From: Candidatus Microgenomates bacterium
GTDB lineage: Bacteria > Patescibacteriota > Microgenomatia > Levybacterales > UBA12049
Reading direction: 5' to 3'
Assembly (NCBI GenBank): GCA_025451755.1
Contig: JANWJT010000017.1
Coordinates: 82,147 to 135,892 of the forward strand
DNA length: 53,746 bases
Each line of letters begins with the position of its first letter. Within the stretch, counting starts at the first letter, position 1. This document shows positions 7,420 through 25,227 of this stretch, piece by piece. The position numbers and the translations under genes are program-made. The notes beneath the pieces are model-generated. The model ran no database searches and was not told the origin of the DNA. It was given only the letters and a program-made list of their open reading frames with translations.

Positions 7420-7755
7420 TTATTTTTTGTAGCTAAAAAACATTTCTAGGGTGACAAATAAGATAAGGAGCATGATTAAAAAGAAAATGTGAGTTAGATC
7501 TAAAAATCTAAGCAAAAGATAAGTTGAAGCAAAAAGACCGATGAAAATTCCTCTTCTCATATTATTTAATACAAAAGAAGAAATCGAGAAGAATAACAAG
7601 AAAGAAATTAAAAGAAAGACTGGAAAAATGGGTACTTGAAAATTGAAAACTGCGACTTGAAAATTAGGAGATAAGAAAACTATTAAATATATAAAAATTG
7701 CTAAAGATAAAAGGCCGACGATTAAAAGCCAAATAGGTTTTTTTCTTCGCTTCAT
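7420..7755 (-). CDS. Small membrane protein (3 TM), unknown function
   Basis: The track ORF extends to 7815, but that extension overlaps the CIRCE element. The internal MKRRKKPIWLL start at 7755 is preceded on the minus strand by TGcTAAACT-N7-ATG. Confidence 0.5.
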   Translation of the reverse strand: MKRRKKPIWLLIVGLLSLAIFIYLIVFLSPNFQVAVFNFQVPIFPVFLLISFLLFFSISSFVLNNMRRGIFIGLFASTYLLLRFLDLTHIFFLIMLLILFVTLEMFFSYKK

Positions 7756-7794
7756 AAAAATAAGTTTAGCATATTTTGATACAGAAAAAGGGGG

Positions 7795-7823
7795 TTGACA
7801 ACTATTAGCACTCATGTTATATT
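7795..7823 (+). promoter_or_regulatory. Sigma-70 type promoter of the hrcA operon (TTGACA-17-TATATT)
   Basis: TTGACA at 7795-7800, a 17-nt spacer, and TATATT at 7818-7823. The promoter overlaps CIRCE. Confidence 0.65.
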
Positions 7824-7831
7824 AGTGCTAA
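7805..7831 (+). promoter_or_regulatory. CIRCE operator (HrcA binding site)
   Basis: TTAGCACTC-atgttatat-TAGTGCTAA matches the consensus TTAGCACTC-N9-GAGTGCTAA with one mismatch, and lies directly upstream of hrcA. Confidence 0.9.
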
Positions 7832-8684: not shown

Positions 8685-9136
8685 AAAATATGGCAAAAAA
8701 GAGTTCAAAAATAAATGAAGTACAGACGCTCAAGAAAAAAAACGAAGAACTCGAGGGTCATATAAAAAGAACGTTGGCAGATTATCAAAATCTAGAAAAA
8801 AGGGTAGCAGAAGAAAGACAGAATTTGATAAAATCAGCTACCAGAGGGTTTATTTTAAAATTATTACCTGCTCTTGATACCTTGATTCTTGCTAAAAAAC
8901 ATACTGAAGATCAGGGACTCGAGCTTGCCATACAGCAATTATCTGATATATTAGAAAAGGAAGGGGTAAAAAAAATAGAAACATTCGAAAAAGATTTTGA
9001 CCCAAAATATATGGAATGCGTTACTGTAGCAGAGGGAGAAGATGGGAAAGTTATCGAAGAATTAAAAACAGGTTATACTTTAAATGAAAATGTTTTAAGA
9101 GCTTCACAGGTAGCTGTAGGAAAAGGAGGGAATTAA
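8678..9136 (+). CDS. grpE: Nucleotide exchange factor GrpE (short)
   Basis: Coiled-coil N-terminus, LADYQNLEKR (the conserved GrpE 'DFxNxRKR'-like segment), and its position between hrcA and dnaK. An alternative start exists at 8690. Confidence 0.85.
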   Translation: MVKNMAKKSSKINEVQTLKKKNEELEGHIKRTLADYQNLEKRVAEERQNLIKSATRGFILKLLPALDTLILAKKHTEDQGLELAIQQLSDILEKEGVKKIETFEKDFDPKYMECVTVAEGEDGKVIEELKTGYTLNENVLRASQVAVGKGGN

Positions 9137-9139
9137 ATT

Positions 9140-11077
9140 ATGGGAAAAATTATTGGAATAGATTTAGGTACAACAAACTCAGCATCTGCTGTAATGGAGG
9201 GTGGATCTCCTAAAATTATTCACTCTTCGGAAGGAAGAAATACAACTCCTTCTGTTGTTGATCCTATTTCTCACATTGTCGGAGATGTTGCAAAACGTCA
9301 GTTAGTACTAAAGCCAAAACAAACTATATTTTCAGTTAAAAGATTAATGGGAAGAAAGTTTAAAGATGCCTCTGTTCAAGGCGATATTAAATGGATTCCT
9401 TATACAGTAAAATCTAGTAGAGATGAAATGGCTGTTGTTGAAGTTGAAGGAAGAACTTTTACTCCTCAAGAAATCTCAGCACGGATTCTTCAAAAAATAA
9501 AAAGCGATGCCGAAAGTTATCTTGGTGGAAAAGTAACACAGGCAGTTATTACAGTTCCTGCGTATTTTGACGACAGTCAGCGTCAGGCAACAAAACAAGC
9601 AGGTGAAATTGCAGGACTTGAAGTTTTAAGAATCATAAATGAACCAACTGCTGCAGCCTTAGCTTACGGGCTAGATAAAAAAAATGCTCATGCTATTGCA
9701 GTTTACGATTTGGGCGGAGGAACTTTTGATATTTCTATTCTTGAGCTTGGAGAAGGAGTTTACGAAGTAAAGTCAACAAACGGAGATACTCATTTGGGAG
9801 GAGACGATTTCGATCAGCTAATCGTAGATTATCTTGCAGAGGAGTTCAAAAAAGAAAATGGAGTTGATCTAAAAAAAGATCCTCAGGCACTTCAGCGCTT
9901 GCGAGAAGCTGGAGAAAAAGCAAAAATAGAATTATCATCTTCAACAGAAGCACAAATTAATCAGCCATTCATAACGCAAGGGAAAGACGGACCGTTGCAT
10001 CTTACAATGACTTTAACTCGGGCAAAGCTTGAGCAAATTGTTGATGTTCTTATTCAAAAAACCATAAAACCGGTTGAACAGGCACTAAAAGATGCAAAAG
10101 TAAAAGTATCGGACATTGACGAAATTGTTCTTGTTGGCGGAATGACAAGAATGCCAAAAATTGTCGAGGCAGTAACTAAATTTTTTGGCAAGGAACCAAA
10201 TAAATCTGTAAATCCCGATGAGGTTGTTGCAATTGGGGCTGCCATTCAGGGAGGAGTTTTGGGCGGAGAGGTAAAAGACGTTCTGCTTTTAGATGTAACC
10301 CCTTTAACGCTTGGCATAGAAACTTTAGGTGGTGTTTCAACTCCTCTTATTGCGAGAAATACAACGATTCCGACTTCCAAATCTCAGGTTTTTTCTACAG
10401 CGGCAGATAATCAAACACAAGTAGAAATAAATGTTTTGCAGGGAGAAAGACCAATGACTGCGGACAATAAATCTTTAGGAAGGTTTGCTTTGGACGGTAT
10501 TCCTCCTTCTCCGCGAGGAGTCCCTCAGGTAGAAGTAACATTCGATATAGATGCAAACGGAATTCTAAATGTAAAAGCTCAAGACAAAGCAACTGGTAAG
10601 GAGCAGAGCATAAAAATTACCGGATCAACTGGACTTACAAAAGAAGAAGTCGAGAAAATGACCAAGGAAGCAGAAGAGCATGCAAAAGAAGATTTAGAAA
10701 AAAAAGAGCAAATAGAAGCCAAAAATTCAGCAGATTCATTAATATTCACAGCAGAAAAAACACTTAAAGACGCCGGTGACAAAGTTGACTCAAATCTTAA
10801 GAAAGAAGTAGAAGATAAAATTGCCGATCTTAAATCTGTTCTTGAAACAGGGACAAAAGAAGATCTAGAGAGTAAAACAAAGGATCTTTCCGATTCTCTA
10901 CAAAAAGTTGGACAGGCAATGTACAGTAAAGGACAACAACCAACCGATGATAAAACTCAGCAGCAAACTGACGATAAAAAGGAGACAGAAGATTCACAAT
11001 CAGATTCAAATGATTCAAAAAAAGAAAAAGCAGACTCGGGTAAAGAAGAACCGGTCGAAGGCGAAGTAGTAAATTAA
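9140..11077 (+). CDS. dnaK: Molecular chaperone DnaK (Hsp70)
   Basis: [18 protein letters not shown] and [10 protein letters not shown] signatures, with an AGGAGG Shine-Dalgarno sequence 8 nt upstream. Confidence 0.98.
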
Positions 11078-11106
11078 ATATAACCTAATATAAATGATTT
11101 TAATTA

Positions 11107-11127
11107 AGCGCGGTAAACGCGCTTTTG
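11107..11127 (+). terminator. Rho-independent terminator after dnaK
   Basis: AGCGCG-gtaaa-CGCGCT hairpin followed by TTTTGT. Confidence 0.6.
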
Positions 11128-11146
11128 TAATATAATAAACAAGTTC

Positions 11147-12046
11147 ATGGCACAAAAAGATTATTACCAAGTTTTAGGAGTTACAAAAAATTCATCGGCC
11201 GATGAAATTAAAAAAGCTTACAGAAAATTAGCTCTTCAATATCATCCTGACAGAAATAAAACTAAAGAGGCAGACAAAAAATTTAAAGAAGTTACTCAGG
11301 CATATGAAGTTTTGTCAGATTCCCAAAAAAAACAATCCTATGATCAATTTGGTCATCAGGCTTTTACTCAAGGCGCAGGAGGTCAGGGACCTTTCGGCGG
11401 CGCTCAGGGCGGACAAGGAAATGCCGGAAGATACGGACCATTTACTTATACGTATTCAACTTCAGGAGGAAGAGAAGGAGCAGATTTTGATTTTGGAGGA
11501 TTCTCAGATCCATTCGAAATATTCGAGCAATTTTTTGGAGGCGGGTCTCCATTCGGTTCCCGCCAGAGACGTTCTGCATACTCACTTTCAGTCGATTTTA
11601 TAGAGGCAGTTAAGGGAACAACAAAAAAAATATCAATTGGAGGAAAAGATCAAACCATAAAAATTCCGGCAGGAGTTGATGACGGATCAAGAATTAGGTT
11701 TGCAGATTATGATGTTATTGTCGATGTTAAAAAGGACCCAAGATTTAGAAGAGAGGGGTACGATATTATTTCCGAAATTGAAATTCCGTTTTTTAAAGCG
11801 GCATTGGGAGATACAGTAAGTGTCATAACAGTAGATGATCAGGTAAAATTTAATGTTCCTGCAGGTACTCAGCCGGATACGATTGTAAAACTTAGGCAAA
11901 GAGGAGTGACTCACTTAAGAGGTTCGGGGCGCGGAGAACATTATGTAAAAATCAAAGTTGTAATTCCTAAAAATCTTACAGGGCATCAGAAAAATCTTCT
12001 CAAAGAATTTGGAGAAGAAAGTAAAAATAAAAAAGGTTGGTTTTAG
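11147..12046 (+). CDS. dnaJ: J-domain co-chaperone (DnaJ/CbpA type, no zinc-finger domain)
   Basis: J-domain with HPD (LQYHPDRNK), a G/F-rich region and a C-terminal substrate-binding domain. The protein contains no cysteine at all, so the CxxCxGxG repeats are absent. Confidence 0.85.
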
Positions 12047-12076: not shown

Positions 12077-12367
12077 ATGCCTTGCCCAGATGGAGTTCAA
12101 ACAGATTTAGGATGTATTCCAAATGACCCCTTTGCCTTTGTTACAAAATTTTATGGAATAGGGCTTGGGGTAATTGGTGGAGTTGCTCTTCGTTTTATTA
12201 TTTTTGGTGGATATACAATTCTTACTTCGCAAGGGCAGCCCGATAAGATTAGTAAGGGAAAAAGTTATATCTATTATGCAATTGCAGGGCTTCTCTTGGC
12301 GATTTTTGGTTATGTCTTAATTCAAATTATAGCTGTTGATGTATTGCATATTCCGGGATTTAGATAA
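12077..12367 (+). CDS. Small two-TM protein resembling the CPR 'type IV secretion system pilin' (TrbC/VirB2-like) family
   Basis: The pattern DLGCIPNDP...GLGVIGGVALRFIIFGGYTILTSQGQPDKISKGKSYIYYAIAGLLLAIFGYVLIQIIAVDVL matches my recollection of the family: two hydrophobic helices with a short G.P.K loop between them. No N-terminal signal peptide is present, and an in-frame TAG lies 31 nt upstream of the ATG. Confidence 0.55.
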   Translation: MPCPDGVQTDLGCIPNDPFAFVTKFYGIGLGVIGGVALRFIIFGGYTILTSQGQPDKISKGKSYIYYAIAGLLLAIFGYVLIQIIAVDVLHIPGFR

Positions 12368-12433
12368 TAAGTTTGACGAATGAGAATATGCATAGTATGC
12401 TAAAAAGAGACATTTGATCCTGTTATTGGAGGA

Positions 12434-12461
12434 TTGATATTTTTATTTTAAGGTTTATAAT
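12434..12461 (+). promoter_or_regulatory. Promoter TTGATA-16-TATAAT upstream of the PrsA-like gene
   Basis: Both hexamers are read directly from the sequence. The leader is 17 nt with no Shine-Dalgarno sequence. Confidence 0.5.
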
Positions 12462-12478
12462 TTAACCCATATAGTAAC

Positions 12479-13408
12479 ATGGATGGTCAAGAAACAAAGG
12501 AAGTAGATAGTACACAAAAAGCTTCACAGCCTCAGCCGGTACCGGGCCGTTCTAATAAGAAGCGGTTTGCAATCGGTATTATTATTTTGCTAATTTTCCT
12601 TTTTGCCGCTTTTGGTCTTTATAGCTTAACTCGCAAACAAGTTCCTGCCGATATTCTTCTTGCAACAGTTGGAAATGAAAAAATTTATAAGAGTACTGTA
12701 GAGAAAGTGGCAGAAGAGCAATATGTCCCGTCTGCAATAGATAATGTGGTTTTAAAAAGATTTCTTGATGTTACTATAGAAAGATTAATTTTGAATAACG
12801 AAGCAAAAAAACTAGAGATCGTTGTTTCGGATAGCGAAATAAGTAATTATCTAAACGAAAATAAATTATCGGAAAAAGCGAAATTAATAGCAAAATACAC
12901 GCTCTTGAAAGAAAAAATCATAACGAGCCAAATTAAAAATGTTGAAGCATACACAGTGGGTTTTTGGATACCTCCTTATTCATACCCGCAAGAACCAGAG
13001 TTTGATTTACAAAGAAAAGAAGGAGAAAGTGCGCTTAGTGAAATCGAACAAAAACTTAAGGCAGGAGAAACGGCATCTGCTGCAGCAAGCGCTGCATACT
13101 TAAAATATCCTAGGTTACAGAATATACTAGCAGTAAATGGATATCTTTTGAAAACGGTAACTGAACAAAGCTTAATTACAACCCCAAAAGAATATGTATT
13201 TAGTAGCGAAAACGCAGGACAAATATTCTATGACACCTTGTTCTCTTTAAGAAATATTGGAGAAGTAAGAAAAATACAAGGAGAAGATGGCTCGGGAGGG
13301 TCAGTGATTAAGCTAGTTGCAATAAATTCCGGAATGGACTTAGGATATGAAGATTGGTTGAATGAAAAAAAGAAAGCATTAGTTACAATGCATAATAATT
13401 TAGAATGA
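12479..13408 (+). CDS. Membrane-anchored SurA/PrsA-like foldase (parvulin-like domain degenerate)
   Basis: One N-terminal TM helix followed by a SurA_N-like helical region (VGNEKIYKSTVEKV...LILNNEAKKLEI). This is weak similarity only. Confidence 0.4.
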   Translation: MDGQETKEVDSTQKASQPQPVPGRSNKKRFAIGIIILLIFLFAAFGLYSLTRKQVPADILLATVGNEKIYKSTVEKVAEEQYVPSAIDNVVLKRFLDVTIERLILNNEAKKLEIVVSDSEISNYLNENKLSEKAKLIAKYTLLKEKIITSQIKNVEAYTVGFWIPPYSYPQEPEFDLQRKEGESALSEIEQKLKAGETASAAASAAYLKYPRLQNILAVNGYLLKTVTEQSLITTPKEYVFSSENAGQIFYDTLFSLRNIGEVRKIQGEDGSGGSVIKLVAINSGMDLGYEDWLNEKKKALVTMHNNLE

Positions 13409-14955
13409 GACGATATTTATTTATTATTTTTTTATTTTTTATTGTTATGTTGTTGTTTGCAGATAGTGCGCGGGCAAATCATAACAGGCCTAATTGCTTG
13501 GGCATGTATGGAACTGTTCAAGGCGTAAATTATTCGGGGGGTCAGATAAAAGTATCTTGCGGGGGAGATGCAGGTCCTTCAGGATGCACAGGAAATTCTG
13601 CAATGCTTTCGCCGGGACAAAGTTTCCATTTTGATAATTGCAGTTGTCCACCATATACAGATGGGTGTCTAAAAGTAGAAAATGTTCCTTGGTTATGTTC
13701 TGCAGGATATGATATGGCTTGTGGCACAAATGGCCAAGTATTACGTAAAGATATAACGCTTTCTTGTCTACTTCCTCCATCTGCATCTCCAACTTCTACT
13801 CCAACTCCAGTACCAATCCCGCCATCAAATCTTGGCGTTGAAGCAGTCTGTCTTGCAAGCGGTACTCCGCAGGTTAAATTTACTTGGAGACCTGGAGAAA
13901 GTCCGTCGCTTTGGCTTGACATTACTAAAGAACAGTCATTTGGTTTGAATTTCTATAACAGAGATGTGACAGATAATAGCAATGCCGGTATTTTCTATTG
14001 GGACACTTTGCGTAAAATCAAGCTTAATACCTCAAACACCAATGATTATGCTCCGGAGATAAATACAACATATAATTGGAGACTTAATTATGGACCTGCC
14101 TCTGTAAACGGTCAAAGTTTTACGACACCTGCCACTTGTGTTCCTTCCACAACAATATCGCCAACAGAATCACCGACTCCTACTCCAACAGGTACACCGA
14201 CCCCTACGCCAACACCAAGCATAGTACCAAGCGGTCCTCCTGTAACTTTACCGCCCCTAACTCCTCCTGTAACTCCTCCTGTAACTTCTACTCCAAGACC
14301 ATCGGCAACATTTACTCCTAAGCCTCCTACTCCAACACCAACGCCTGACCTTTTTAGTCCTGCAATGTGCAAATGTGACGGAATGGAAGCAACCGGAATT
14401 TTCCCTGGCGCAAACGTGTCGTTTAGTGCATTTGCTAAAGTATTTGGTACCGATGTCAATTTCGCTAAGGTAAAAGATATTACGTTTTCGGTTTATGAAA
14501 GCCCGGAAAATAAACCAAATACAGCTATTCGAATTGCACAGTCAAGTCCAATCTCTGCTCAAGAGATTTTAAAAGATTCTTCAGCAATAAGGTATAAATC
14601 AAATTGGAATTTTATATTTCCTGCTAATGTAAATACATCTTCTTTGTATAGAGTAACAGCGCAAATAAATTGTGTTAAAAAAGTTGCAATGGCTCCTTCG
14701 AACGTACTTGGCGAAGAAACTGTGCGCCCAAGCTTTATCCAAAATCTCCTCTCCTTTTTAAGAAAGCCTTTGGATTTTGTGGGAGGATTGTTTGGCGGCG
14801 GGGATTCTGAACTATTGTCTGAATCACCTTCTGAGCTGGCAGTACCGACACAAACTACAAACCAGAGGACAGGACTTCAGCTTAAAACTATTCAGCCCGC
14901 TCAAATGCTTGAAAAGTCCTGCTCGCTACTTAAATTTAAGTTTAATAATCAATAG
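13405..14955 (+). CDS. Secreted three-module protein with a Cys-rich N-domain and Pro/Thr linkers
   Basis: Signal peptide (LFIIFLFFIVMLLFADSARA), about 12 Cys in the first module, and two PT-rich linkers (SPTSTPTPVPIPP; PTESPTPTPTGTPTPTPTP...PPTPTPTP). Its start overlaps the upstream stop (ATGA). Confidence 0.6.
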   Translation: MRRYLFIIFLFFIVMLLFADSARANHNRPNCLGMYGTVQGVNYSGGQIKVSCGGDAGPSGCTGNSAMLSPGQSFHFDNCSCPPYTDGCLKVENVPWLCSAGYDMACGTNGQVLRKDITLSCLLPPSASPTSTPTPVPIPPSNLGVEAVCLASGTPQVKFTWRPGESPSLWLDITKEQSFGLNFYNRDVTDNSNAGIFYWDTLRKIKLNTSNTNDYAPEINTTYNWRLNYGPASVNGQSFTTPATCVPSTTISPTESPTPTPTGTPTPTPTPSIVPSGPPVTLPPLTPPVTPPVTSTPRPSATFTPKPPTPTPTPDLFSPAMCKCDGMEATGIFPGANVSFSAFAKVFGTDVNFAKVKDITFSVYESPENKPNTAIRIAQSSPISAQEILKDSSAIRYKSNWNFIFPANVNTSSLYRVTAQINCVKKVAMAPSNVLGEETVRPSFIQNLLSFLRKPLDFVGGLFGGGDSELLSESPSELAVPTQTTNQRTGLQLKTIQPAQMLEKSCSLLKFKFNNQ

Positions 14956-15019
14956 ATTTCCTCCTTCAAGTGTGCTACTATTTCTTTATGACTGCCGGTA
15001 TGATTTCGGTTAAATAAAT

Positions 15020-17365
15020 ATGACAAAACATCTGCCCGGAATTAAGAAAATTTTTGTTAGTGTCTTGTTTCTTCTCTTGCTAGTTATTCCAAGTCTTTTC
15101 TATCCTCAAAAAATAATTGCTCAAACTCCTACTCCGTCAGCCGAAGGGCAATGGGTTAAGGATGATGAAGTTACTTTTGTTGGAAAAGCTGCAGTAAGGT
15201 CCGGGGAATTCTTAGACTGGACTCTTGCAAATTACAACTGGTCTTCTGTTTCGAGCGGACAAAATAATCCACTTGCAGCTTTTTGGGCAACAATACGAAA
15301 TATTGTCTATGCATTCTTTACTCTTTTTGTTCTGGTTTCAGCTTTTGTAATAATTGTTACCCGCGGACGGAACATAACTGTCATGAAATTTATTCCAAGA
15401 TTTATAATGATACTTCTCCTTGTTACTTTTTCCTTTGCTCTTATACAATTTATATATCAAATAACAGATGCTATCCAAGGATTCTTCTTAAGAAATCCCG
15501 ATGCGTCAACTTTTGCTCAGCATCCCACCATATGGCAGGGGAACCTTTTATTTGTAGGCTTTGGATATGATTTTCAAGGGTATAGAATACTCGGGTCTGC
15601 ATTTGACGAGTCTTATTTCGTATCTCTTCTTCTCGTTAAGCTAACAGCTTTAACTTACTACATGATGGTTGGAATACTTATTCTTAGAAAAATTATTCTT
15701 TGGTTTTTTATTATAATTTCGCCGATATTTCCGCTTCTTCTCTTATACTCTCCAATTAGAAATACTGCGAAGATTTGGGTAGGAGAATTTTTTCGCTGGC
15801 TTTTATACGCTCCTATTTTTGCAATTTTTCTTTCTGGCTTGGTTCATTTGTGGGCCTCAAGCACAAGTACACTTTCTGGTATTCCTTTAAAGTTTAATTT
15901 TAACGGAGCAGTTGAGTATCAAACAGCAATAAGTATCCTCTTGGGAGGACCGGGTCAGATAGTAGGACTTACCAACAGCGTAAACAATAAAGACACATTT
16001 GCTTTATATGTAGTGGCGCTTCTCATGCTTTGGGTTGTTATTATTTTGCCATTTCTTCTTCTTAAAATTTTTCTTGATTTCTTGCGTGATTTTTCTTTTA
16101 GTGAAAGTACTCTTATGAAGCAATTGGTAGCTGGAGGATCTTCTCTGGTTGGAAGAGGTGCGGGAGGAAAACCTCCGCCGCCTCCTTCTATGCAGCCAGA
16201 AGGAGTAGCTCGTCCGCTTCCTTTTACATCTGCTAAGATTGCGATTCCGCAGATACGAACAAACGAAGCGATAATAAATGCGCAAGCGGCTAATATAAAA
16301 GAAACTCAAATGAGCTCCAGTCTGCTTCGGCTTGCAAATTTAAGTATTCCTACCATGAAAGATATAGCAAAATATGAAACTTCTCTTTTGTCATCCGATA
16401 TTGGTAAGCATCAGGATATTGCAAAGTTTCATGAAGCACTTGAGGGAATAGCAAATCCTCATAGGGTAGCAACTCCAACGCAAAGAGATCAGTATAATCA
16501 CTTGCAAGAAAAATTAAAACAGGAGGCAAGAAGAGGTGATCCACTTGCTAACTCTATTTTATCGGCAGCAAAATCCGTTTCGGGTAAAGACACTACTCCA
16601 TCTGTTGAAACAGCCAAGCTAAATTCAGTACTTGCGGGGGTAAACAATTTAGATAGTATTAGCTCGGTTGAGGAAAGACAAAAATCAAGTTCTATCAAAA
16701 CCGCTCTGACTCAAGCCCAAGAAAAAGGTGACCCATTGGCAATTTCGGTGTTGTCTGCAATGCAAAAAGGAGAAGCTGGAATAGATGAAAGCTTGAAGCA
16801 AAAATTATTCGAAGCAAAAGAAAAAGGAAACGCTCTTGCTGCTTCTATTCTAGAAGCTTCGGGCGGAACAGATCTTAAAGGAGATAAAAGTTTCCCGGCA
16901 TCGAATAGAGTTCAGTCTGTAAGCATAGATGATTACGAATCTGTTAAAAAGATATGGCAGGAAAATTATCAAAAACTTGAACCGCCAAAGACAATAGATG
17001 GAAAACAAAGAGACAGAAAGGAATGGATTTCAAATGATATAGATAAAATCTCTGAAACCATAAATCTTTTAGCTTCATCCGATCCTCAAAATGTAGCAAA
17101 GGGAATGGAAGCAGTGGGAGCTATTCTTCCATTCCTTCTTGTCGGTGGATTTTCCCAAACCGAAGTAACAACTTATCTTAAAGCAAAACTTGAGGCGGCG
17201 AAAGCAGTAAAAGAAGAAATAGGCAAAAAAGAAGAAGAGGAATCTACGATGCTTGACACGTCAAAGAAGAAAGAGGAAAAGCCTAAAGAATTAGAAGTTC
17301 AGGAAGAGCTAAAAAAACCCGAAGAAATAATTGACAGCGATAAGAATAAAGATGGTACTATATAA
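15020..17365 (+). CDS. Large polytopic membrane protein (TrbL/VirB6-like topology) with a repeat-containing cytoplasmic C-terminal domain
   Basis: Signal peptide, an extracytoplasmic N-domain, at least 6 TM helices, a PPPPPP hinge, then about 400 soluble residues. The soluble region carries three copies of a (K/R)GDPLAxS(I/V)LSA-like motif and an acidic/Lys-rich tail. Confidence 0.5.
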   Translation: MTKHLPGIKKIFVSVLFLLLLVIPSLFYPQKIIAQTPTPSAEGQWVKDDEVTFVGKAAVRSGEFLDWTLANYNWSSVSSGQNNPLAAFWATIRNIVYAFFTLFVLVSAFVIIVTRGRNITVMKFIPRFIMILLLVTFSFALIQFIYQITDAIQGFFLRNPDASTFAQHPTIWQGNLLFVGFGYDFQGYRILGSAFDESYFVSLLLVKLTALTYYMMVGILILRKIILWFFIIISPIFPLLLLYSPIRNTAKIWVGEFFRWLLYAPIFAIFLSGLVHLWASSTSTLSGIPLKFNFNGAVEYQTAISILLGGPGQIVGLTNSVNNKDTFALYVVALLMLWVVIILPFLLLKIFLDFLRDFSFSESTLMKQLVAGGSSLVGRGAGGKPPPPPSMQPEGVARPLPFTSAKIAIPQIRTNEAIINAQAANIKETQMSSSLLRLANLSIPTMKDIAKYETSLLSSDIGKHQDIAKFHEALEGIANPHRVATPTQRDQYNHLQEKLKQEARRGDPLANSILSAAKSVSGKDTTPSVETAKLNSVLAGVNNLDSISSVEERQKSSSIKTALTQAQEKGDPLAISVLSAMQKGEAGIDESLKQKLFEAKEKGNALAASILEASGGTDLKGDKSFPASNRVQSVSIDDYESVKKIWQENYQKLEPPKTIDGKQRDRKEWISNDIDKISETINLLASSDPQNVAKGMEAVGAILPFLLVGGFSQTEVTTYLKAKLEAAKAVKEEIGKKEEEESTMLDTSKKKEEKPKELEVQEELKKPEEIIDSDKNKDGTI

Positions 17366-17367
17366 GT

Positions 17368-20088
17368 ATGTTTGGTAATTTATTTGGGTCAAGAAAATAT
17401 ATAGTAGATAATCAGGTGCAGCAGGATCAGCAAGGACAACAGATACCGCCACAGGTATCTGCCCCTCAAATCTCTCAAAATCCAGCTGTTCCTCAATCTC
17501 CGGCTGTCGGTGCATCCTCTTCTATGGAGCCAGGTACTAGGCAGGGACTTTCAGTTTTGTCTCATTTAGATACCAGGGCTACTCAAGTTTTAAATCTTGC
17601 ATTACAGGAATCAAAAAGAATTAAGCAGGCATTAATAGAACCCGAAGAGATAATGATAGGTCTTTTATATGATGGGGAGGTTTTTAAATTGGTTTCTCAA
17701 TTTTCTTCGGATCCCACGACAATAGTTAAAGAAATTCAGAGTAAGCAAGTTATGGGAACTTTTTCCGGAGAGCCTACTCTAAGCGATACATCTAAAAAAG
17801 TTTTTGATGATGCTTATAAAATGGTACAAAATCGGGGGGTCGAATTTATAACGCCGGAAGATCTACTACTTACACTATTTTCTCAGACGGCTTCATCGAA
17901 TATTCTTCAAAACCAGGGGATTAAAAAAGAAGATTTAGAGAAAACACTTTCAAAATCTACAGCTTATGTAAAAGGAAAAAAATCTGCACTCGAAAGTTAT
18001 GGAGTTGATTTAACAGAGCAGGCAAAAAATGGAGAACTCGATCCGATTGCAGGACGAGATTCAGAAATAGAAAGAGCAATCCACATTTTGCTTAGACGAA
18101 CCAAAAATAACCCGATTATTATAGGAGAAGCAGGGGTTGGTAAAACTGCAATTGTAGAAGGTCTTGCAAAAAAGATTGTAGACGGGTCTGCTCCAAAAGA
18201 TTTATTAAACAAAAAAATAATTCAGCTAGATTTATCTTCACTAGTAGCAGGAGCGTCTCATAGGGGAGAATTTGAGGAAAGACTTAGAAATGTTATTAAG
18301 GAAACTCAGGTCGCGGCGGGTACTATTGTTTTATTTATCGATGAAATTCATACATTAATTGGAGCAGGAGATACAGAAGGAGCGCTAGATGCTTCAAATA
18401 TTGTAAAACCATTTCTAGCAAGAGGACAGCTTCAAATAATTGGGACGACTACCACAACAGAATACAGAAAGTATTTTGAAAAAGATAAAGCATTCGAAAG
18501 AAGATTTCAGCCTGTCCTAGTTGCGGAGCCCGATGAGAAAACCGCAGTAGAAATGTTAAAAGTTTTAAAAGCAAAATATGAAGATTTCCACAAAGTTTTA
18601 TTGCCTGACCAAGCGCTTGATGCGTCGGTAAAATTGTCAAAAAGATATATTGGAGAAAGATACCTTCCCGACAAAGCAGTAGATCTTTTAGATGAAGCTT
18701 CGGCGGAAGTAAGACTTGAAATACAAGCTGGCAGGAGACAAGATAATAATGTTATCGAAGAGGATATTCAAAAAGTTGTAAGCAGCTGGACGGGAATTCC
18801 TATAACCAAGCTTACAGAGAATGAGGGCGAAAAATTACTTCATCTCGAAGACACTATCCACAAAAGGTTAATAAATCAGGAAATCGCAGTTTCCTCGGTT
18901 GCAGAAGCTGTAAGAAGAGGAAGAATTGGTTTATCCAGTGCAAATAGACCTATTGCATCTTTTATTTTTCTAGGTCCAACGGGCGTTGGAAAGACTGAAC
19001 TTGCAAAAACTTTAGCAGAAATAATTTTCGGAAAAGAAGATTTAATGATAAGGCTTGATATGAGTGAATACATGGAGAAGCACGAGGTAGCAAAGCTTAT
19101 TGGTGCTCCTCCGGGATACGTTGGATATGAAGAGGGTGGACAACTAACAGAAGCAGTAAGAGCAAAGCCTTACTCAATTGTCTTGTTGGATGAAATAGAA
19201 AAAGCTCATCCCGATGTTTTTAATATAATGCTTCAGCTTCTAGAAGACGGAAGGCTTACAGACAACAAAGGGAATACCATTTCTTTTAAAAATACAATAA
19301 TTATTGCAACCTCAAATATTGGAAGCGATCTTATTCAAAAGGAGCTTGAGGAAAATAAAAAAGTTGATGATGCACCTTCTAGCAAAGAAGTTTCTGCAGA
19401 TGAATTAACTAAAAGATTTGAGAAGCTTTCAAAAATATTACTGGTAGAGCTTCGAAAATTCTTTAAACCAGAACTCTTAAACCGTTTTGATGAAGTTGTA
19501 ATATTTGAATCACTTACGCAAAAAAATATGCATGCGGTTGCAAATCTTGGAATTAATTCCACCAAGAAATTATTAAACCAGCAAGGAATAGATATAGAAG
19601 TTGCGCAGGAGGCATTAACTCAGCTTGCCAAAGAAGGGTACGATCCAATTTATGGAGCAAGACCATTAAGGCGTCTTATTCAAAGCGCAATAGAAAATCC
19701 AATTGCAATTCTTATAATAAATAAAACATTTATTAAGGGAGACAAAATTTTGGTCAATTTTGATAGTCAGAAGCAACAATTTGCTTTTTCCAAAGCTCCT
19801 CCTCCAGTTCAAAGTCAAAATACTGACGGAGCACAGATTCCCAATCAGCCACCATCTAATCAGCCTCCTGTTCAGCCAATTGCAAACGGAACACCACCGG
19901 TAGATAACGTTGGTCAGGCTATTCCTAATCAAAATCCAACACCAATTCCTATTCCTGCTCCAATTTTAACTCCAGACCCAATTCCAGGCCTAACGCCAAA
20001 TCCATCCTTCCCGAACCCGCCTGTAAATCCAGTTAGTCCAATTAACACTGTTGGCACAGACGGAAGTCAAATGCAGCCTCAAAATTGA
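17368..20088 (+). CDS. Hsp100/Clp-family double-ring AAA+ ATPase (Clp_N + NBD1 + NBD2), no M-domain, Pro/Gln-rich termini
   Basis: NBD1 has GEAGVGKTA and [12 protein letters not shown]2 has [22 protein letters not shown] and GARPLRR. The ATG lies 2 nt after the stop of the upstream membrane protein. Confidence 0.85.
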
Positions 20089-20094
20089 TAATAT

Positions 20095-20643
20095 ATGACC
20101 GATGAAAATATTAATCCTCAAAATATTCCAATTCAATCTCCAAACACTGATTTAACAAATCAAAAATCTCCGCCATCAAGTTCAAAAAAAACTATTCTCA
20201 TTGTTCTACTAATAATTTTGATTATTGCTATTTCACTTCTATTTTTTTTATTTTTTAACCAAAAAGAGAAAAGTACTAATCCTACTATAATTCCTACAGT
20301 TAATCCTCAGATAAGTATGGCAACGTCAGGCCAGCTAGCTCCTTCTTCAGGAGTGCAAATAACACCAGAATTCGTTCCAGATGAGGTAATTGTTAAGTAT
20401 AAAACTGGACAGTCGCCAGATGAAATAAAAGATGAAAATAAGAAAAATAAACTCGAGGATTCCTTACAAAGAATCGGAGTATTATCACAAGAAAAGTTAT
20501 ATAACTCAGATGATCCTATTTTAAAAAGATCCTATCTTTTGAAATTTAAAAAAGGATCAGATATATTAAATGCAATAGAAAAATTAAATAAATTGGAGGA
20601 AATAGAATATGCAGAGCCAAATAATATCCAAAATACCTTTTAA
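20095..20643 (+). CDS. Membrane-anchored stand-alone subtilisin-propeptide (inhibitor I9-like) protein
   Basis: One TM helix, then FVPDEVIVKYK...ILKRSYLLKFKKGSDILNAIEKLNKLEEIEYAEPNNI. This is paralogous to the propeptide of the next gene and ends exactly where a catalytic domain would begin. Confidence 0.6.
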   Translation: MTDENINPQNIPIQSPNTDLTNQKSPPSSSKKTILIVLLIILIIAISLLFFLFFNQKEKSTNPTIIPTVNPQISMATSGQLAPSSGVQITPEFVPDEVIVKYKTGQSPDEIKDENKKNKLEDSLQRIGVLSQEKLYNSDDPILKRSYLLKFKKGSDILNAIEKLNKLEEIEYAEPNNIQNTF

Positions 20644-22441
20644 AAAAATTGATAAAAAAAGAAAGTTTCTTTTAGCAGGCGTTTTAATTTTAATAACACT
20701 TTTTTTATCCTCCTTTTTATTAGTTAATAATCAACACAATTCTAATAGTAAAAAATACACTCCTATTCCAAAAGATGCTCAGTTTATACCGGATGAAATA
20801 ATTATTAAATATAAAAAGGATTACACTTTTGATGAACTTAAAATTCTAATGAGTAAATTATTAAAGTTGGGAGTTTTATCGCAAGAAATGGTCTATTTAT
20901 CATCAGATGACCCTATTTTAAAAAGATACTATCTTCTAAAGCTTAAAAAAAATACAGACATAGCAAAGCTTCAAGAATTTTTAAATAATTTCGAAGAGAT
21001 AGATGCCATAGAGCCAAATTATATTCTAGAAACACAGGGAATAGTGCCTAATGATCCCTCATATTCACAGCTGTGGGGTCTTGGCAAGATAGAGATGGAA
21101 AACACTTGGGACATAACAAAAGGTTCAAGTTCTGTTAAGGTGGCAGTAGTTGATTCAGGAATTGACTATAATCATGTTGATTTGCCGGTGAATGTTTTTA
21201 AAGGAAAAGATTTTGTAAATAATGATGACGATCCAATGGATGATAACGGACATGGAACGCATGTTGCCGGGACAATAGGTGCTACCACCGATAATGGGAT
21301 CGGAGTAAGTGGTATTAATTGGAATGTGGAATTAATGGCAGTAAAAGTAATGAATGCGTCTGGTAAAGGAAACACCGTTGGAATTGTTAACGGAGTAAAG
21401 TACGCTATAGATAATGGAGCTAAAGTAATTAACCTAAGCTTAGGTGGTTCCGGATCCTGTAGCGCATGGGATGGCGTAATAAATTATGCAAATAATGCAG
21501 GAGCAGTGGTTGTAGTTGCAGCAGGAAACTCCAACATAGATGCTGCAGGACACAGCCCCGCCAGTTGTAATGGGGTTATTACGGTTGGATCTACAACAAG
21601 CTCTGACTCGCGCTCGTCCTTTTCGAATTTTGGTAGCACGGTAGAGATTGCTGCGCCAGGGAGTAGCATTCTATCAACACTTCCCGGTAATAGATACGGC
21701 TCCAAAAACGGAACCAGTATGGCAACTCCTCATGTAGCAGGAGTCGCGGCTTTACTTCTTACAACAAACCCAAATTTCACGCCAGATCAAATAAAAGATT
21801 GTTTAGTAAATAACGCCGATATTATACCGACAGACAAACCTATTGGTCCAAGACTTAACGCATTTAAAGCACTTACTTTATGTACAGGAGGTACTCTTCC
21901 AATAAATTCCCCAACTCCTCTCATAACAAATGTTCCTTCGACATACAGCATCTCTATAAATATCTGGATAGACAATAATAACGACGGGGTAAAGGATGGA
22001 AACGACACTCCTTATCAGGATGCAATTATAAATCTTACTGGTCCCATAGATTCAAGTGGTACAACTAATGTTTCGGGCGATTTAGCTTTCTCAAGTCTTC
22101 CGTCTGGAGATTATTCTGTAGGAATTATTATACCGGGTTACAATATTTCGCCATACCCAATAAGCATTATTAATGGTAGCATTTTGTTAACATTGGGTCT
22201 TTCTCCTGAGACTCAATTAGCGATCCCTATAGTTGTTACACAACCTATTACACTTACTCCGGTTGCAACATCAATTCCGACTAATGCACCTCTCCCAACG
22301 GGAACACGTCCAGGAGGAACTAGCCCGACTCCAACGCCAACCCCGATTGCAACTTATAACTGTGAGATCGATAAAGAATGTATAAAAAAAACTGGGCAGA
22401 AAAATCTTCAATTTTGTCTTTTAATTTGTAATCCTAGATAG
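20609..22441 (+). CDS. Subtilisin-like serine protease (S8) with TM anchor/signal, I9 propeptide, SdrD-B/Cna-B-like domain and PT-rich Cys tail
   Basis: Catalytic triad contexts VAVVDSGID, HGTHVAGTIG and GTSMATPHVAG. The propeptide runs FIPDEIIIKYK...IDAIEPNYI, and a Ca-binding-like DNNNDGVKDGND is present. Confidence 0.9.
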   Translation: MQSQIISKIPFKKIDKKRKFLLAGVLILITLFLSSFLLVNNQHNSNSKKYTPIPKDAQFIPDEIIIKYKKDYTFDELKILMSKLLKLGVLSQEMVYLSSDDPILKRYYLLKLKKNTDIAKLQEFLNNFEEIDAIEPNYILETQGIVPNDPSYSQLWGLGKIEMENTWDITKGSSSVKVAVVDSGIDYNHVDLPVNVFKGKDFVNNDDDPMDDNGHGTHVAGTIGATTDNGIGVSGINWNVELMAVKVMNASGKGNTVGIVNGVKYAIDNGAKVINLSLGGSGSCSAWDGVINYANNAGAVVVVAAGNSNIDAAGHSPASCNGVITVGSTTSSDSRSSFSNFGSTVEIAAPGSSILSTLPGNRYGSKNGTSMATPHVAGVAALLLTTNPNFTPDQIKDCLVNNADIIPTDKPIGPRLNAFKALTLCTGGTLPINSPTPLITNVPSTYSISINIWIDNNNDGVKDGNDTPYQDAIINLTGPIDSSGTTNVSGDLAFSSLPSGDYSVGIIIPGYNISPYPISIINGSILLTLGLSPETQLAIPIVVTQPITLTPVATSIPTNAPLPTGTRPGGTSPTPTPTPIATYNCEIDKECIKKTGQKNLQFCLLICNPR

Positions 22442-22493
22442 CTTTGATTGCAATTTATTTTAAAACCTCCTACACTAAAAGTATAATCTGCCC

Positions 22494-22820
22494 ATGTTTT
22501 ATTTATCGCTACCCGTAATTTTTTTAAAATTTTGGTATGTTGATGCCCCAAAAGGTCTTGTAGGTTTTTTTCTATCCCTTAATAAGTCTTTTCTTCAGTT
22601 ATTATCGCTGCCTCTTTTAGTAAGAACTTATTTTAAGCCGTGGAAAAATGAATACAGAAAAGGATTAGTTGTATTTTCGATTGGAATGGGAATTTTTATT
22701 AAAACATTTGTAATATTAGCGGATTTAATATTAATTCTTTTATTGCTTTTTCTTGAAATAATGTTTTTTATTTCATTTTTACTATGGCCAATACTAACAA
22801 TATTTTTACTTTTTTCATAA
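22494..22820 (+). CDS. Small 3-TM membrane protein, unknown function
   Basis: 108-aa hydrophobic ORF. A TATAAT box lies 6 nt upstream of its ATG, and its stop is 1 nt before the next ATG. Confidence 0.5.
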   Translation: MFYLSLPVIFLKFWYVDAPKGLVGFFLSLNKSFLQLLSLPLLVRTYFKPWKNEYRKGLVVFSIGMGIFIKTFVILADLILILLLLFLEIMFFISFLLWPILTIFLLFS

Positions 22821-22821
22821 A

Positions 22822-25227
22822 ATGATCGGATACGCCAAAATTTACAACATTTATCAATCTATAGTATTTATATCAATCAGAATATTTATATCGGTATTTT
22901 TGTCTTCGTACATTTTACGTGCTGGTTTAAACAACTCATTCGATTTATCAATAGTAAAACTTCCTTTGTTTCTATTATTTACGTTTTTAATAATAGAAAT
23001 CTTTTTCCATTTTAAAATTTCTAAGAAACTTCCCGAAGTTGAAATCTCATCAAATAAAGGAAATCCTCTGGATTCACTCACTCTAAAATCACTGGGTATT
23101 TTCTTAAGCTCAAATAGCTCTCAGTCTTTAGTAAGAAAACTTCTTAAAATCTCTTCCGTAAATTTCATGACCAGCAAAATGGACATTCTTTCTAAAGAAG
23201 AAATAAAACTTGTTGATTTTCCAAAAGAGGAATTAGCAAAGTACGCTTTAGAAATTTCTAAAAACTTAAAAGGAAAGTTTGTTACCATAATGGATTTATT
23301 CGCGTCTTACATATTGTTAACAGAAGAAAATACAAAAATTTTGTTTAATAAAAATCTTAAAAAAGAGGAGTTCTTGCAAATTCTTTTTTGGGCAAGAACA
23401 AAATTTGCAAGCGAAGAAAATCCACAGCCGTTTAGAATTAGTTTTTCTGGAGAAGGCATTGGGGAAAGTTGGGTTTCGGGCTGGACAATAGAAACAAAAA
23501 AATACATGGTCGACTTAACTTCGGAAGTTTTACAAAAAAAACCTTCTTTTTTAGGACGTGAAAGTGAGCTCAAGCAGCTTATAGAAGGAATGTATAAAAA
23601 TAAAAGCGCACTCTTGGTTGGAGAGGTAGGATCGGGCAAAACAGAAATAGCGCAGAGCCTTGCCTTAGAGAGTTTTGCCGGAAATTTAAAAGGAAGTCTT
23701 TATCACCAAAGATTTTATATGCTTTTGGTTGATGCTTTGCTTGCGGGTTCTGAAAACCCTGGTGAGTTAGAAGAAAGACTTGGCTATGTTATTGCCGAAC
23801 TTTCCCATGCAGGGAATATTATTATTTTTATTCCTTCATTTGAAAACATTTTAGGATCTTCGTCCTTCCATCTGGATCTCTCCGGCGTTCTTATACCATA
23901 TATAGAAAGAGGAGCTATCCGAATAATTGGAACTGTTACGCCCGGATCATTTAAAAAATTTATAGAAACTCGAAAAACACTTCTGGAAAACTTAGAAATA
24001 ATAAAAGTTGATGAGCCAAGCGAAGAGGTTTCTTTTGCAATGCTTTTTAAGAAGGCCAGCCAAATAGAAGAACTAGATAATATAAAAATATCTTACTCTG
24101 CAATTGCTTCATCGTTAAAATATGCTAAAAAATATCTTCCCGATAGAGTTCTTCCAGGAGCTGCGGTAACCCTACTTGAGGATGCAGCTGCGGCGACAGC
24201 TCTTTCTAAGAAAAAGATTCTCGAAGAGGGAGACATTATACAAAAAATAGAAAGTAAAACTAATATTGCTGTTGGAAAGCCTGGAAAAGAAGAGAAAGAA
24301 CTGCTACTTAATTTAGAAGATGAGATTCATAAAAGAGTTGTAGATCAAAAAGAGGCAGTTTTCGAAGTTTCGGAAGCAATGAGAAGACTGCGAACTGGGC
24401 TTACTGTAAAAGATAAACCAATTTCATTTTTATTCCTGGGTCCTACAGGGGTAGGAAAAACAGAAACAGCAAAAGCTTTATCAAAAATTTATTTTGGAGG
24501 AGAGGAAAAAATGATAAGACTCGATATGAGTGAATACTCTGAAGATGGGTCTTTAAAAAGATTGCTTGGCTCAGTTCCTGGAGAAGAACAAATGCCAGGA
24601 GAATTAACAGATAAAATATTAGATAATCCTTTTTCTCTTGTTCTTTTGGACGAATTTGAAAAGGCAAATTCAAACATTTTAAATCTTTTTCTCCAGGTTC
24701 TTGATGATGGAAGACTGACCGATAATAAAGGGAAAACCGTTTCTTTTACGAATGCAATAATTATTGCAACTTCAAATGCGGCTTCGGAATTTATACGCGA
24801 AGAAGTAAATAAGGGTACGGTGGTCGACAAAAAATTCCAGAAAAGTCTTTTAGAGTTTTTGCAGACAAAGGGAATTTTTAAACCCGAACTTTTAAATAGA
24901 TTCGATGGCGTAATTGTATTTAAGCCTTTGGGAGGAAGTGAAATTGAAGAAATAACTAAAATTCTTTTAAAAGAACTTTCCGACAAAATGCTAGAGCAAG
25001 ATATTGCAGTAAGTTTTGATAATGGAATAATTCAAAAAATTATTAAAGAAGGCTTTGATGAACAGTTCGGCGCCCGCCCAATTAGTAGATATATTCAGGA
25101 TAACATCGAAGATCTTCTCGCCCAAAAAATATTAAAAGATGAAATAAAACGCGGAGATAAAATCACAGTTTCAATAGACTCTTTAAGTGTGATTACAGTT
25201 TCAAAATCCTCGCAAGGTATCATCTAG
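22822..25227 (+). CDS. Membrane-anchored Hsp100/Clp-like AAA+ ATPase with degenerate NBD1
   Basis: The N-terminus carries 2 TM helices. NBD1 keeps Walker A (GEVGSGKTE), but Walker B reads IIIFIPSFEN instead of hhhhDE, and the ERRFQ Arg-finger region reads LENLE. NBD2 is intact ([28 protein letters not shown]). Confidence 0.8.
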   Translation: MIGYAKIYNIYQSIVFISIRIFISVFLSSYILRAGLNNSFDLSIVKLPLFLLFTFLIIEIFFHFKISKKLPEVEISSNKGNPLDSLTLKSLGIFLSSNSSQSLVRKLLKISSVNFMTSKMDILSKEEIKLVDFPKEELAKYALEISKNLKGKFVTIMDLFASYILLTEENTKILFNKNLKKEEFLQILFWARTKFASEENPQPFRISFSGEGIGESWVSGWTIETKKYMVDLTSEVLQKKPSFLGRESELKQLIEGMYKNKSALLVGEVGSGKTEIAQSLALESFAGNLKGSLYHQRFYMLLVDALLAGSENPGELEERLGYVIAELSHAGNIIIFIPSFENILGSSSFHLDLSGVLIPYIERGAIRIIGTVTPGSFKKFIETRKTLLENLEIIKVDEPSEEVSFAMLFKKASQIEELDNIKISYSAIASSLKYAKKYLPDRVLPGAAVTLLEDAAAATALSKKKILEEGDIIQKIESKTNIAVGKPGKEEKELLLNLEDEIHKRVVDQKEAVFEVSEAMRRLRTGLTVKDKPISFLFLGPTGVGKTETAKALSKIYFGGEEKMIRLDMSEYSEDGSLKRLLGSVPGEEQMPGELTDKILDNPFSLVLLDEFEKANSNILNLFLQVLDDGRLTDNKGKTVSFTNAIIIATSNAASEFIREEVNKGTVVDKKFQKSLLEFLQTKGIFKPELLNRFDGVIVFKPLGGSEIEEITKILLKELSDKMLEQDIAVSFDNGIIQKIIKEGFDEQFGARPISRYIQDNIEDLLAQKILKDEIKRGDKITVSIDSLSVITVSKSSQGII

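Follow-up and report, generated by a model that had tools for sequence, protein, structure and literature searches.

What would a bacterium do with a pilin-like protein, a large VirB6-like membrane protein and an Hsp100 ATPase whose genes stand side by side within its heat-shock operon? This question is raised by a locus in a stretch of 53,746 nucleotides (hereafter called the window) from the genome of a Candidatus Microgenomates bacterium (assembly GCA_025451755.1, contig JANWJT010000017.1, positions 82,147 to 135,892). Here ten open reading frames (ORFs) occupy positions 12077-25227 of the + strand, and the closest homologues of the window proteins are found in Candidatus Levybacteria (Microgenomatia, Patescibacteria, also known as the candidate phyla radiation, CPR). 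An initial annotation of this DNA, made from the letters alone, had read the ten genes as one envelope module. The positions that it gave for all ten ORFs and the spacings at all their junctions proved exact, most of its domain assignments held in profile searches, and the linkage of the core genes was confirmed. The idea of a single ten-gene module was not: the region consists of two conserved membrane-associated Hsp100 modules, A and B, which are separable from each other, and of swappable accessory genes. Module A is a trio of genes for a VirB2-like pilin, a VirB6-like protein and a soluble Hsp100. Our literature searches found no paper that describes this unit. The linkage of the three genes is real and undescribed, and to judge from the sequences it suggests a membrane machine that has not been described so far.

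The trio is conserved and moves as a unit

Relatives of the VirB6-like protein, which has 781 amino acids (aa) and is encoded at 15020-17365, were sought in one genome per GTDB species. A relative was present in 146 species, and 80 loci were kept; overall, about 90 related loci were used for the comparison of the modules, with the genes mapped by tblastn and ORF mapping. In 82 of 82 loci the VirB6-like gene has the pilin gene directly upstream; the gaps have a median of about 4 nt and mostly do not exceed 10 nt. The Hsp100 gene follows directly downstream of the VirB6-like gene in 69 of 70 loci; the gaps are mostly 100 nt or less, and in the window 2 nt. Since this arrangement is conserved in about 80 species-level genomes, it is far beyond chance. 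Thus the proposal that the 781/906-aa gene pair is syntenic in related genomes was borne out, as it was for the 108/801-aa pair of module B discussed below. Eight further loci have a single gene inserted between the VirB6-like gene and the Hsp100 gene; its signal-anchored product has about 460 aa. A conserved signal-anchored protein of 452-463 aa (MNK...ASCVDFDPP) is encoded between these two genes in loci L007, L013, L015, L020 and L036, and also in L006, L037, L040 and L086.

In the window the cluster adjoins the heat-shock operon on its downstream side, as had been noted. Across the related loci it is rather embedded in this operon. The dnaK gene is found upstream of the module in 59 of 61 loci; in 48 loci dnaJ comes before the module, and in 21 it comes after the module, which is then located between dnaK and dnaJ. 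The trio also occurs away from the dnaK operon, namely after greA in L003, and in L057, L077 and L081.

The VirB6-like family reaches Gottesmanbacteria and Roizmanbacteria. Two distant loci with 32-34% identity have the trio in other surroundings. In one of them (L091) it stands beside dnaN-dnaA and yidC. The other (L089) contains a gene resembling type IV coupling proteins (T4CP-like) and, in this order, genes for an integrase, a TraC-like protein, the VirB6-like protein, the Hsp100 and a T4SS_pilin with a full score; the gene order of the trio is therefore changed. L089 is the only locus with a T4CP-like gene near the trio. In three Gottesmanbacteria-type loci (L088, L090 and L092) the VirB6-like gene belongs to a string of topA, an SLT_3-like gene, genes for small anchored proteins rich in Pro and Thr (PT-rich), PAP2 and SpoU; for about 1.9 kb downstream, no gene is called in L088 and L092.

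To compare the histories of the genes, pairwise distances over 53 species were correlated. The distance matrices of the VirB6-like protein and the Hsp100 correlated with r 0.79 and those of the VirB6-like protein and the pilin with r 0.75, compared to 0.54-0.68 when the VirB6-like protein was paired with heat-shock genes. Among themselves, the latter reached r 0.70-0.88, which gives two blocks overall. These values support the view that the trio is a unit with a common history, where the correlation cannot tell co-evolution of the proteins from the history of a cassette.

The window ORFs were scanned with domain profiles; this covered nearly all non-overlapping ORFs of at least 90 aa, with at least one, the 129-aa ORF at 37623-38012, left out. 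No VirB4, VirD4 or ClpP was detected among the ORFs scanned, nor within about 10 kb in those related loci whose flanks were scanned with Pfam, in agreement with what had been concluded for the window from the letters.

VirB2-like and VirB6-like proteins of module A

The first gene of module A (12077-12367, + strand) encodes a 96-aa VirB2/T4SS_pilin-like protein. It has two transmembrane (TM) helices and a loop rich in Lys; its N-terminal part includes a short Cys...Cys segment, and in its C-terminal part the sequence IPGF is conserved. Its matches to the profiles are weak, with E 1.4e-3 and 19.1 bits for T4SS_pilin (PF18895, cutoff 26.6 bits) and E 8.5e-6, also below the cutoff, for NF045849. 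The orthologues match PF18895 more strongly than the pilin of the window, those of L002 and L089 without being marked as weak, and the consensus of the family is highly conserved across orthologues. Sequence searches of the PDB with the pilin and with the profile of the VirB6-like family gave nothing meaningful.

The second gene (15020-17365, + strand) encodes the 781-aa protein, an extended VirB6/TrbL-like platform. The protein itself has no Pfam match. Among 18 diverse members of its family, however, 8 are matched by TrbL/VirB6 (PF04610; best E 1.6e-5), the only Pfam family that recurs among the members. An AlphaFold2 model was calculated from an alignment of 70 sequences and has a predicted local distance difference test score (pLDDT) of 70-93 in the membrane part. 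From the N- to the C-terminus it shows a signal peptide, then five TM helices, all of them long, and two loops containing beta structure; a disordered linker rich in Pro leads to the helical repeats, after which come a helical domain that is conserved at the C-terminal side and an end that is acidic and disordered. When the model was compared with the PDB by Foldseek, the top four matches were TrwI/VirB6 of the R388 type IV secretion system (T4SS), with a probability of 0.99-1.0 and TM-scores of 0.44-0.50. Because of these top fold matches and the recurrence of PF04610, we accept the 781-aa protein as divergent VirB6/TrbL-like, as far as a model and sequence profiles can indicate, and in this point the initial annotation had been right.

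The hydropathy of the protein leaves the number of TM helices ambiguous at 5 or 6. VirB6 proteins have the N-terminus outside and the C-terminus inside. In the model the two beta-containing loops are on one side and the tail is on the other, which agrees with this topology. On the basis of the loop pairing in the model and of the known VirB6 topology, the 781-aa protein presumably has 5 TM helices with the C-terminus inside and a cytoplasmic tail of about 400 aa. The tail contains the repeat E.QKG[DN]xLAxSIL, the copy number of which varies among the family. Long members (up to 2790 aa) contain the entire tail module several times over, and the tails span 400 to >2000 aa across the family; members P0241-P0252 (1500-2790 aa) have up to 10 copies of the tail module. 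Matches of helix-turn-helix and Sigma70_r3 profiles in the long tails were sub-threshold, looked spurious and came from the repeats, so they were discarded. Clustered at 50% identity, the family comprises 857 clusters at E <=1e-3 and 331 at E <=1e-30. It is a discrete family, and thus a large divergent VirB6-like protein family is newly identified here.

The soluble Hsp100 of module A

The third gene (17368-20088, + strand) encodes a soluble Hsp100 of 906 aa with the domains Clp_N, AAA, AAA_lid_9, AAA_2 and ClpB_D2-small. Both nucleotide-binding domains (NBDs) have intact Walker A and Walker B motifs. Among solved structures the best match is ClpC of S. aureus (E 1e-206), in an alignment that skips the M-domain, and the ClpB model matches the protein in two pieces, skipping roughly model positions 416-526. 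In 57 of 59 orthologues 40-42 aa separate the NBD1 lid from the GIP motif, a ClpA-like distance which means that the M-domain is absent. The tripeptide for docking to ClpP, [ILVMF]G[FLM] after NBD2, was found in neither Hsp100 of the window and was also absent from 63 of 64 orthologues. In pore loop 1 the usual Tyr is replaced by His, both in the 906-aa protein and in 43 of 51 orthologues; pore loop 2 of the 906-aa protein is the canonical GYVGY.

The protein stays below every curated equivalog cutoff, i. e. those for ClpB, ClpA, ClpV, ClpK and ClpG. With TIGR03346 (ClpB, cutoff 1232.1 bits) it scored 885.6 bits and the 801-aa Hsp100 of module B scored 446.3 bits; with TIGR03345 (ClpV, cutoff 884.95 bits) the 906-aa protein scored 675.4 bits. 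From its sequence we predict that it cannot dock ClpP, because the docking loop is lacking, and cannot couple to DnaK via an M-domain, because this domain is lacking as well. It is therefore ruled out both as ClpB, by the missing M-domain and the score below the cutoff, and as an unfoldase partner of ClpP like ClpA or ClpC, by the missing docking loop. Together with the absence of VirB4 this agrees with the earlier statement that the locus is no canonical T4SS, no Clp protease and no standard ClpB locus. Low-complexity extensions rich in Pro and Gln are present at both ends of the protein (17368-17550 and 19800-20088), and the 781-aa protein has a poly-Pro linker.

The partner Hsp100s of the two distant loci L089 and L091 keep the His in pore loop 1 and have no ClpP loop; their spacing fits a short M-domain of the size of ClpC (95 aa). 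The M-domain was therefore lost specifically in Levybacteria, and the pore-loop-1 His is the signature of the partner Hsp100. Throughout the sampled Levybacteria-type lineages, and in the two distant ones as well, the VirB6-like protein has as its constant neighbour an Hsp100 bearing this signature and not VirB4.

Module B contains a membrane-anchored Hsp100

The second Hsp100 unit consists of two genes. The first (22494-22820, + strand) encodes a small polytopic membrane protein of 108 aa with the motif KPWKNEYRxGLV, taken from the family consensus. No family in Pfam or NCBIfam matches it, and its 668 homologues are all unnamed or annotated as hypothetical. The second (22822-25227, + strand) encodes the Hsp100 of 801 aa, for which profiles, motifs and hydropathy were analysed. 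The stop codon of the former and the ATG of the latter are separated by 1 nt, and across the loci the gaps are mostly -4 to +11 nt.

The 801-aa Hsp100 has no recognisable Clp_N domain. Its anchor is an N-terminal hydrophobic hairpin of two helices. Family-wide, NBD1 is degenerate, with GxxGxGKE as Walker A and the Walker B lost, and the aromatic residue is missing from both pore loops. Walker A, Walker B and sensor 2 of NBD2 are intact. The description of this protein as an Hsp100 with a TM anchor of its own and a dead NBD1 was thus correct. Because only the ATPase motifs of NBD2 are kept and aromatic pore loops are absent, the 801-aa Hsp100 is probably a regulatory or structural membrane ATPase and not a processive unfoldase of the canonical threading type, as far as can be read from its motifs. 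A literature search turned up no described counterpart of a membrane-anchored Hsp100 without aromatic pore loops, and this paralogue is the second new item of the locus.

In GCA_035479535.1 the trio is located after greA (L003), and hrcA-grpE-dnaK-dnaJ-tm110-Hsp100-nusA is found on another contig (L087). This split of the two Hsp100 units shows that they are two separable modules. Even with module A at another place, the pair of the 108-aa protein and the anchored Hsp100 keeps its position between dnaJ and nusA.

Comparison with known systems

Module A resembles the T4SS of R388 (TrwI/VirB6; PDB 7o3v, 8rt9, 8rtd) in that a gene for a small, pilin-like protein with two helices adjoins the genes for a platform of the VirB6 fold and for a hexameric ATPase. 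It differs in that the neighbouring ATPase is an Hsp100/Clp AAA+ protein instead of VirB4, that no VirB3, VirB8, VirD4 or relaxase was detected in the locus among the window ORFs scanned, that a repeat tail of 400 to >2000 aa, presumably cytoplasmic, extends from the platform, and that the pilin is highly conserved and not variable. A canonical T4SS is ruled out because VirB4, its signature protein, is absent from the locus. In the model for R388 the ATPase reportedly acts on the VirB6 platform that handles VirB2, and the logic which we propose below for module A follows this model.

The second system with similarities to module A is the translocon of exported proteins (PTEX) in Plasmodium, in which HSP101 works on EXP2. 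There, a ClpB/Hsp100 hexamer sits on a membrane conduit without a peptidase; for module A the same is proposed from the gene composition. In sequence, the 906-aa protein is related to the HSP101 chains (6e10, 6e11), with E around 1e-152. Homologues of EXP2 and PTEX150 are absent, the membrane partner being VirB6-like here, and HSP101 has an M-domain in contrast to the Levybacteria protein. The analogy would be one of mechanism only.

Unfoldases of the ClpC type without the LGF motif for ClpP have been described as ClpIb in Actinomycetota and are predicted to be independent unfoldases (PMC10149685). They share with the 906-aa protein the double ring, the short or missing M-domain and the lack of the LGF for ClpP docking. 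However, they belong to another phylum, and the parts of the source available to us mention no membrane partner or T4SS-like partner (PMC10149685); in the Levybacteria proteins, moreover, the M-domain is wholly lost and pore loop 1 carries a His. [quoted passage not shown] ClpV has an M-domain, though, and no T6SS genes were found among the window ORFs scanned. An identity of the 906-aa protein with ClpV/TssH was rejected for this reason and for its TIGR03345 score below the cutoff.

Module B can be compared with FtsH, Msp1/ATAD1 and Bcs1, which are AAA+ rings tethered by N-terminal TM helices. Unlike these, the Hsp100 of 801 aa has two rings, a dead NBD1 and neither aromatic pore loops nor a protease domain, and it is paired with a conserved polytopic protein of 108 aa.

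Several other systems with related components were considered for the window genes and rejected. For mycosin and EccA of the type VII secretion system the scores were too low (186.9 vs 278.75 bits for TIGR03921 and 31 vs 466 bits for TIGR03922). For the Iet anti-phage system, the IetA match had E 2.4e-5 without any stretch that passed alone, and the IetS match was to the generic S8 core (E 2.3e-13); an Iet system is also disfavoured because the protease of the window is membrane-anchored and has a prodomain. The defence systems DolB and PDC-M37 showed only generic similarity to AAA_2 and S8.

Possible functions of module A

Our leading interpretation, which we hold tentatively and with a little less than even confidence, is that module A is a membrane platform derived from a T4SS, with a tail that recruits an Hsp100 dedicated to it as the motor. 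The two-helix subunit of the VirB2 type and the five-helix platform of the VirB6/TrbL type would build the membrane assembly. The tail of the platform, with its approximately 400 cytoplasmic residues, would recruit the hexameric AAA+ ATPase of the ClpC/ClpB type, which could then exert an unfolding or pulling force at the cytoplasmic face. Most likely the Hsp100 would either feed unfolded clients into the VirB6/VirB2 assembly or dislodge the pilin-like subunits from it. By analogy, the corresponding roles would be those of VirB4/VirD4 in a canonical T4SS and of HSP101 on the EXP2 pore of the malaria PTEX. The physical docking, the direction of action and the clients are what we infer here. If the coupling is physical, a Clp-family unfoldase would be the motor of a T4SS-derived membrane assembly, which would be unexpected for the fields of secretion and of AAA+ proteins alike.

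A bolder version would make module A a self-sufficient machine that is independent of VirB4, in which an Hsp100 hexamer docked on the repeat tail of a VirB6-like oligomer would drive the export of unfolded proteins through a VirB6/VirB2 conduit, or else build up and retract a filament of the VirB2-like kind. It would then be a bacterial counterpart of PTEX, with module B as a regulatory paralogue. We regard this as rather doubtful. CPR bacteria depend on contact with host cells, and if this version were true, episymbiotic members of this group would possess a new class of motor for secretion or for pili.

A number of findings speak against a motor function of the Hsp100 at the platform. The Foldseek E-values of the TrwI/VirB6 matches are marginal (0.06-0.075), and the cytoplasmic tail has no recognisable fold, with a pLDDT of 68 in a model of the C-terminal region and no match in the PDB above a probability of 0.10. 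Fusions of the VirB6-like and Hsp100 genes were sought among the very long family members and none was present. The Gottesmanbacteria-type VirB6-like homologues of L088, L090 and L092 have neither an adjacent Hsp100 nor an adjacent pilin. Most of the sampled loci are from one lineage, so that part of the synteny is due to shared ancestry. In two Levybacteria genomes, furthermore, VirB4 and TrsD are encoded with two strong pilins at another locus, and this separate VirB4 could be the real motor. Finally, the position of the trio inside the heat-shock operon, in 59 of 61 loci, fits a role in proteostasis equally well.

Such a role in the proteostasis of envelope or membrane would mean that the VirB6-like protein is a tether or adaptor for a heat-shock Hsp100, which would act as an extractase or disaggregase. 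Misfolded membrane or secretory proteins would be pulled out for refolding or disposal as by FtsH, Msp1 or Cdc48; nothing would be secreted and there would be no pilus. In line with this, the operon is preceded by a CIRCE operator and has the module between dnaK and dnaJ in 21 loci, module B remains in the heat-shock operon, the accessory genes code for a foldase-like protein and proteases, and pulling by AAA+ proteins naturally extracts toward the cytosol. The trio, however, also occurs away from dnaK, in L089 even beside T4CP-like and TraC-like genes; its partners, VirB2-like and VirB6-like, are specifically of the T4SS type; and CIRCE never directly precedes module A. Altogether we consider proteostasis an unlikely explanation for the trio. 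The third interpretation has its starting point in a survey of T4SS in Patescibacteria, which found VirB6 homologues to be scarce in Microgenomatia, put this down to divergence and makes no mention of Clp or AAA+ proteins (PMC12102498). In the one genetically tractable member of the CPR/Patescibacteria, T4SS genes are reported to be essential (PMC12102498). In two Levybacteria genomes a separate locus with two VirB2, TrsD, VirB4 and VirB1 is present, in which no VirB6 was detected and which has no genes of the dnaK operon (PMC12102498 Tables S1 and S3). Hence the pilin-like and VirB6-like proteins might be the "missing" divergent VirB2 and VirB6 of a T4SS of the VirB4 type encoded elsewhere, the Hsp100 being a co-regulated chaperone or substrate unfolder and not a structural partner. 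The Gottesmanbacteria-type homologues, which have no Hsp100 and are near an SLT_3 (VirB1-like) gene, would fit this as well. Yet the VirB4 locus has strong pilins of its own, the adjacency of the VirB6-like and Hsp100 genes is found in three contexts and two gene orders with a pore-loop signature specific to the partner, and the divergence of the VirB6-like protein tracks the Hsp100 more than the heat-shock genes. This makes service for a distant T4SS decidedly improbable.

It could also be that there is no functional link at all and that the locus represents the frozen gene order of a heat-shock operon in a streamlined lineage, with two ClpB-derived paralogues, remnants of a T4SS and genes for secreted proteins. 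The predominance of one lineage among the 80 loci, the dense packing of genes on one strand of the window and the promoter and terminator scans at chance level would agree with this. A frozen order is difficult to reconcile, however, with a trio that moves and reorders as a unit and is still contiguous at 32-34% identity, with accessory genes that turn over at the junctions as the core stays, and with the tight conservation of the pilin; we consider it very unlikely.

Accessory genes

The remaining genes of the cluster, for the SurA-like, PT-rich, prodomain and S8 proteins, are interchangeable accessory genes for envelope proteins exported by Sec. Nearly all inserted genes in the related loci encode proteins with an N-terminal signal or anchor.

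Two of these genes split the pilin gene from the VirB6-like gene. One (12479-13408, + strand) encodes a membrane-anchored protein of 309 aa with a SurA N-terminal domain (PF13624, SurA_N_3, E 2.3e-10) and one TM helix (residues 30-48). It had been called a PrsA/SurA-like foldase; the SurA domain and the anchor are present, but a profile search did not find a peptidyl-prolyl isomerase domain. The other (13405-14955, + strand) encodes a Cys- and Pro/Thr-rich protein of 516 aa with an N-terminal hydrophobic signal or anchor segment and no family match; its start overlaps the stop of the SurA-like gene as ATGA (13405/13408). In this genome only do they stand between the two genes, which abut in every other locus, including that of a relative with 82% identity. 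They are thus an insertion that is absent at this position from all related loci and not parts of the module, as had been assumed. In L084, homologues of the SurA-like protein (weak) and of the PT-rich protein are encoded on the minus strand downstream of the module.

Two more genes fill a variable slot after the first Hsp100. The first (20095-20643, + strand), 6 nt behind the stop of the 906-aa gene, encodes a membrane-anchored free prodomain protein of 182 aa and overlaps the second by 35 nt. The second (20609-22441, + strand) encodes a membrane-anchored S8 subtilase of 610 aa (PF00082, E 3.5e-65) with a prodomain of its own and an SdrD_B-like domain. The 182-aa protein had been taken for an I9 propeptide (PF05922). 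Its match is instead to the fervidolysin-type prodomain (Fervidolysin_NPro-like, PF22148, E 3.1e-11), which is also found in the S8 protease (E 1.6e-3), a subtilase with prodomain. The 182-aa protein duplicates the TM anchor and the prodomain of the protease, with 52% identity over 91 residues, and could be an inhibitor or chaperone paralogue or what is left of a second gene for a protease. About 9-10 loci have a comparable ORF, of 149-183 aa, ahead of the protease. The slot contains an S8-like gene in about 29 loci and is empty in about a dozen; some other loci have there a gene for an M4 protease or for a protein of the cohesin, fn3 or M64-like kind. The view that an inhibitor and a subtilase are integral parts of the module therefore had to be given up.

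Heat-shock operon and other genes of the window

The hrcA-grpE-dnaK-dnaJ operon, identified by Pfam, extends from 7953 to 12046 (+ strand). Upstream of hrcA (7795-7831, + strand), a motif scan found the promoter-like sequence TTGACA-17-TATATT, overlapping a controlling inverted repeat of chaperone expression (CIRCE), TTAGCACTC-N9-TAGTGCTAA, with 1 mismatch. It is the sole CIRCE match of the window, and the promoter-like site that it overlaps is the best one upstream of hrcA. A CIRCE-like site is also found upstream of hrcA in 45 related loci, and in none of the loci is there one directly before the pilin, VirB6-like, Hsp100 or 108-aa genes. Both modules and the accessory genes are embedded in a CIRCE-preceded hrcA-dnaK operon of a Candidatus Levybacteria genome. 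A second CIRCE-like site was seen 2.4-4.7 kb upstream of hrcA in L027, L038, L047, L049, L054, L059, L060 and L065.

Apart from the CIRCE/promoter site upstream of hrcA, the counts of promoter-like sequences and terminators across the region were at the level of shuffled sequence and are therefore uninformative. This also applies to the TATAAT before 22494, which is present as described but is one of such chance-level matches. The genes of the modules are presumably co-transcribed. The genes of the window are crowded tightly on one strand.

Divergent from hrcA, the minus strand carries at 7420-7815 a polytopic ORF of 131 aa without a family match. Its place is taken in 11 of 82 related loci by a second pilin-like gene, likewise on the minus strand.

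Scans of the window with Rfam and for tRNAs were empty. The downstream neighbourhood consists of housekeeping genes, namely nusA-infB, rpsO-pnp, RNase J and a true FtsK. The latter (34569-36680) is the only gene of the FtsK/SpoIIIE type in the window; it carries the alpha and gamma domains of FtsK and is therefore not a coupling protein. Directly before RNase J, a Lon-type AAA+ protein of 356 aa (AAA and Lon_lid) without a protease domain is encoded at 31784-32854. On the minus strand (40557-43605) a sortase gene overlaps the gene for a 774-aa protein, which has only a weak Baseplate_J-like match. Two genes for peptidyl-prolyl isomerases of the FKBP type are located in tandem at 45590-46603.

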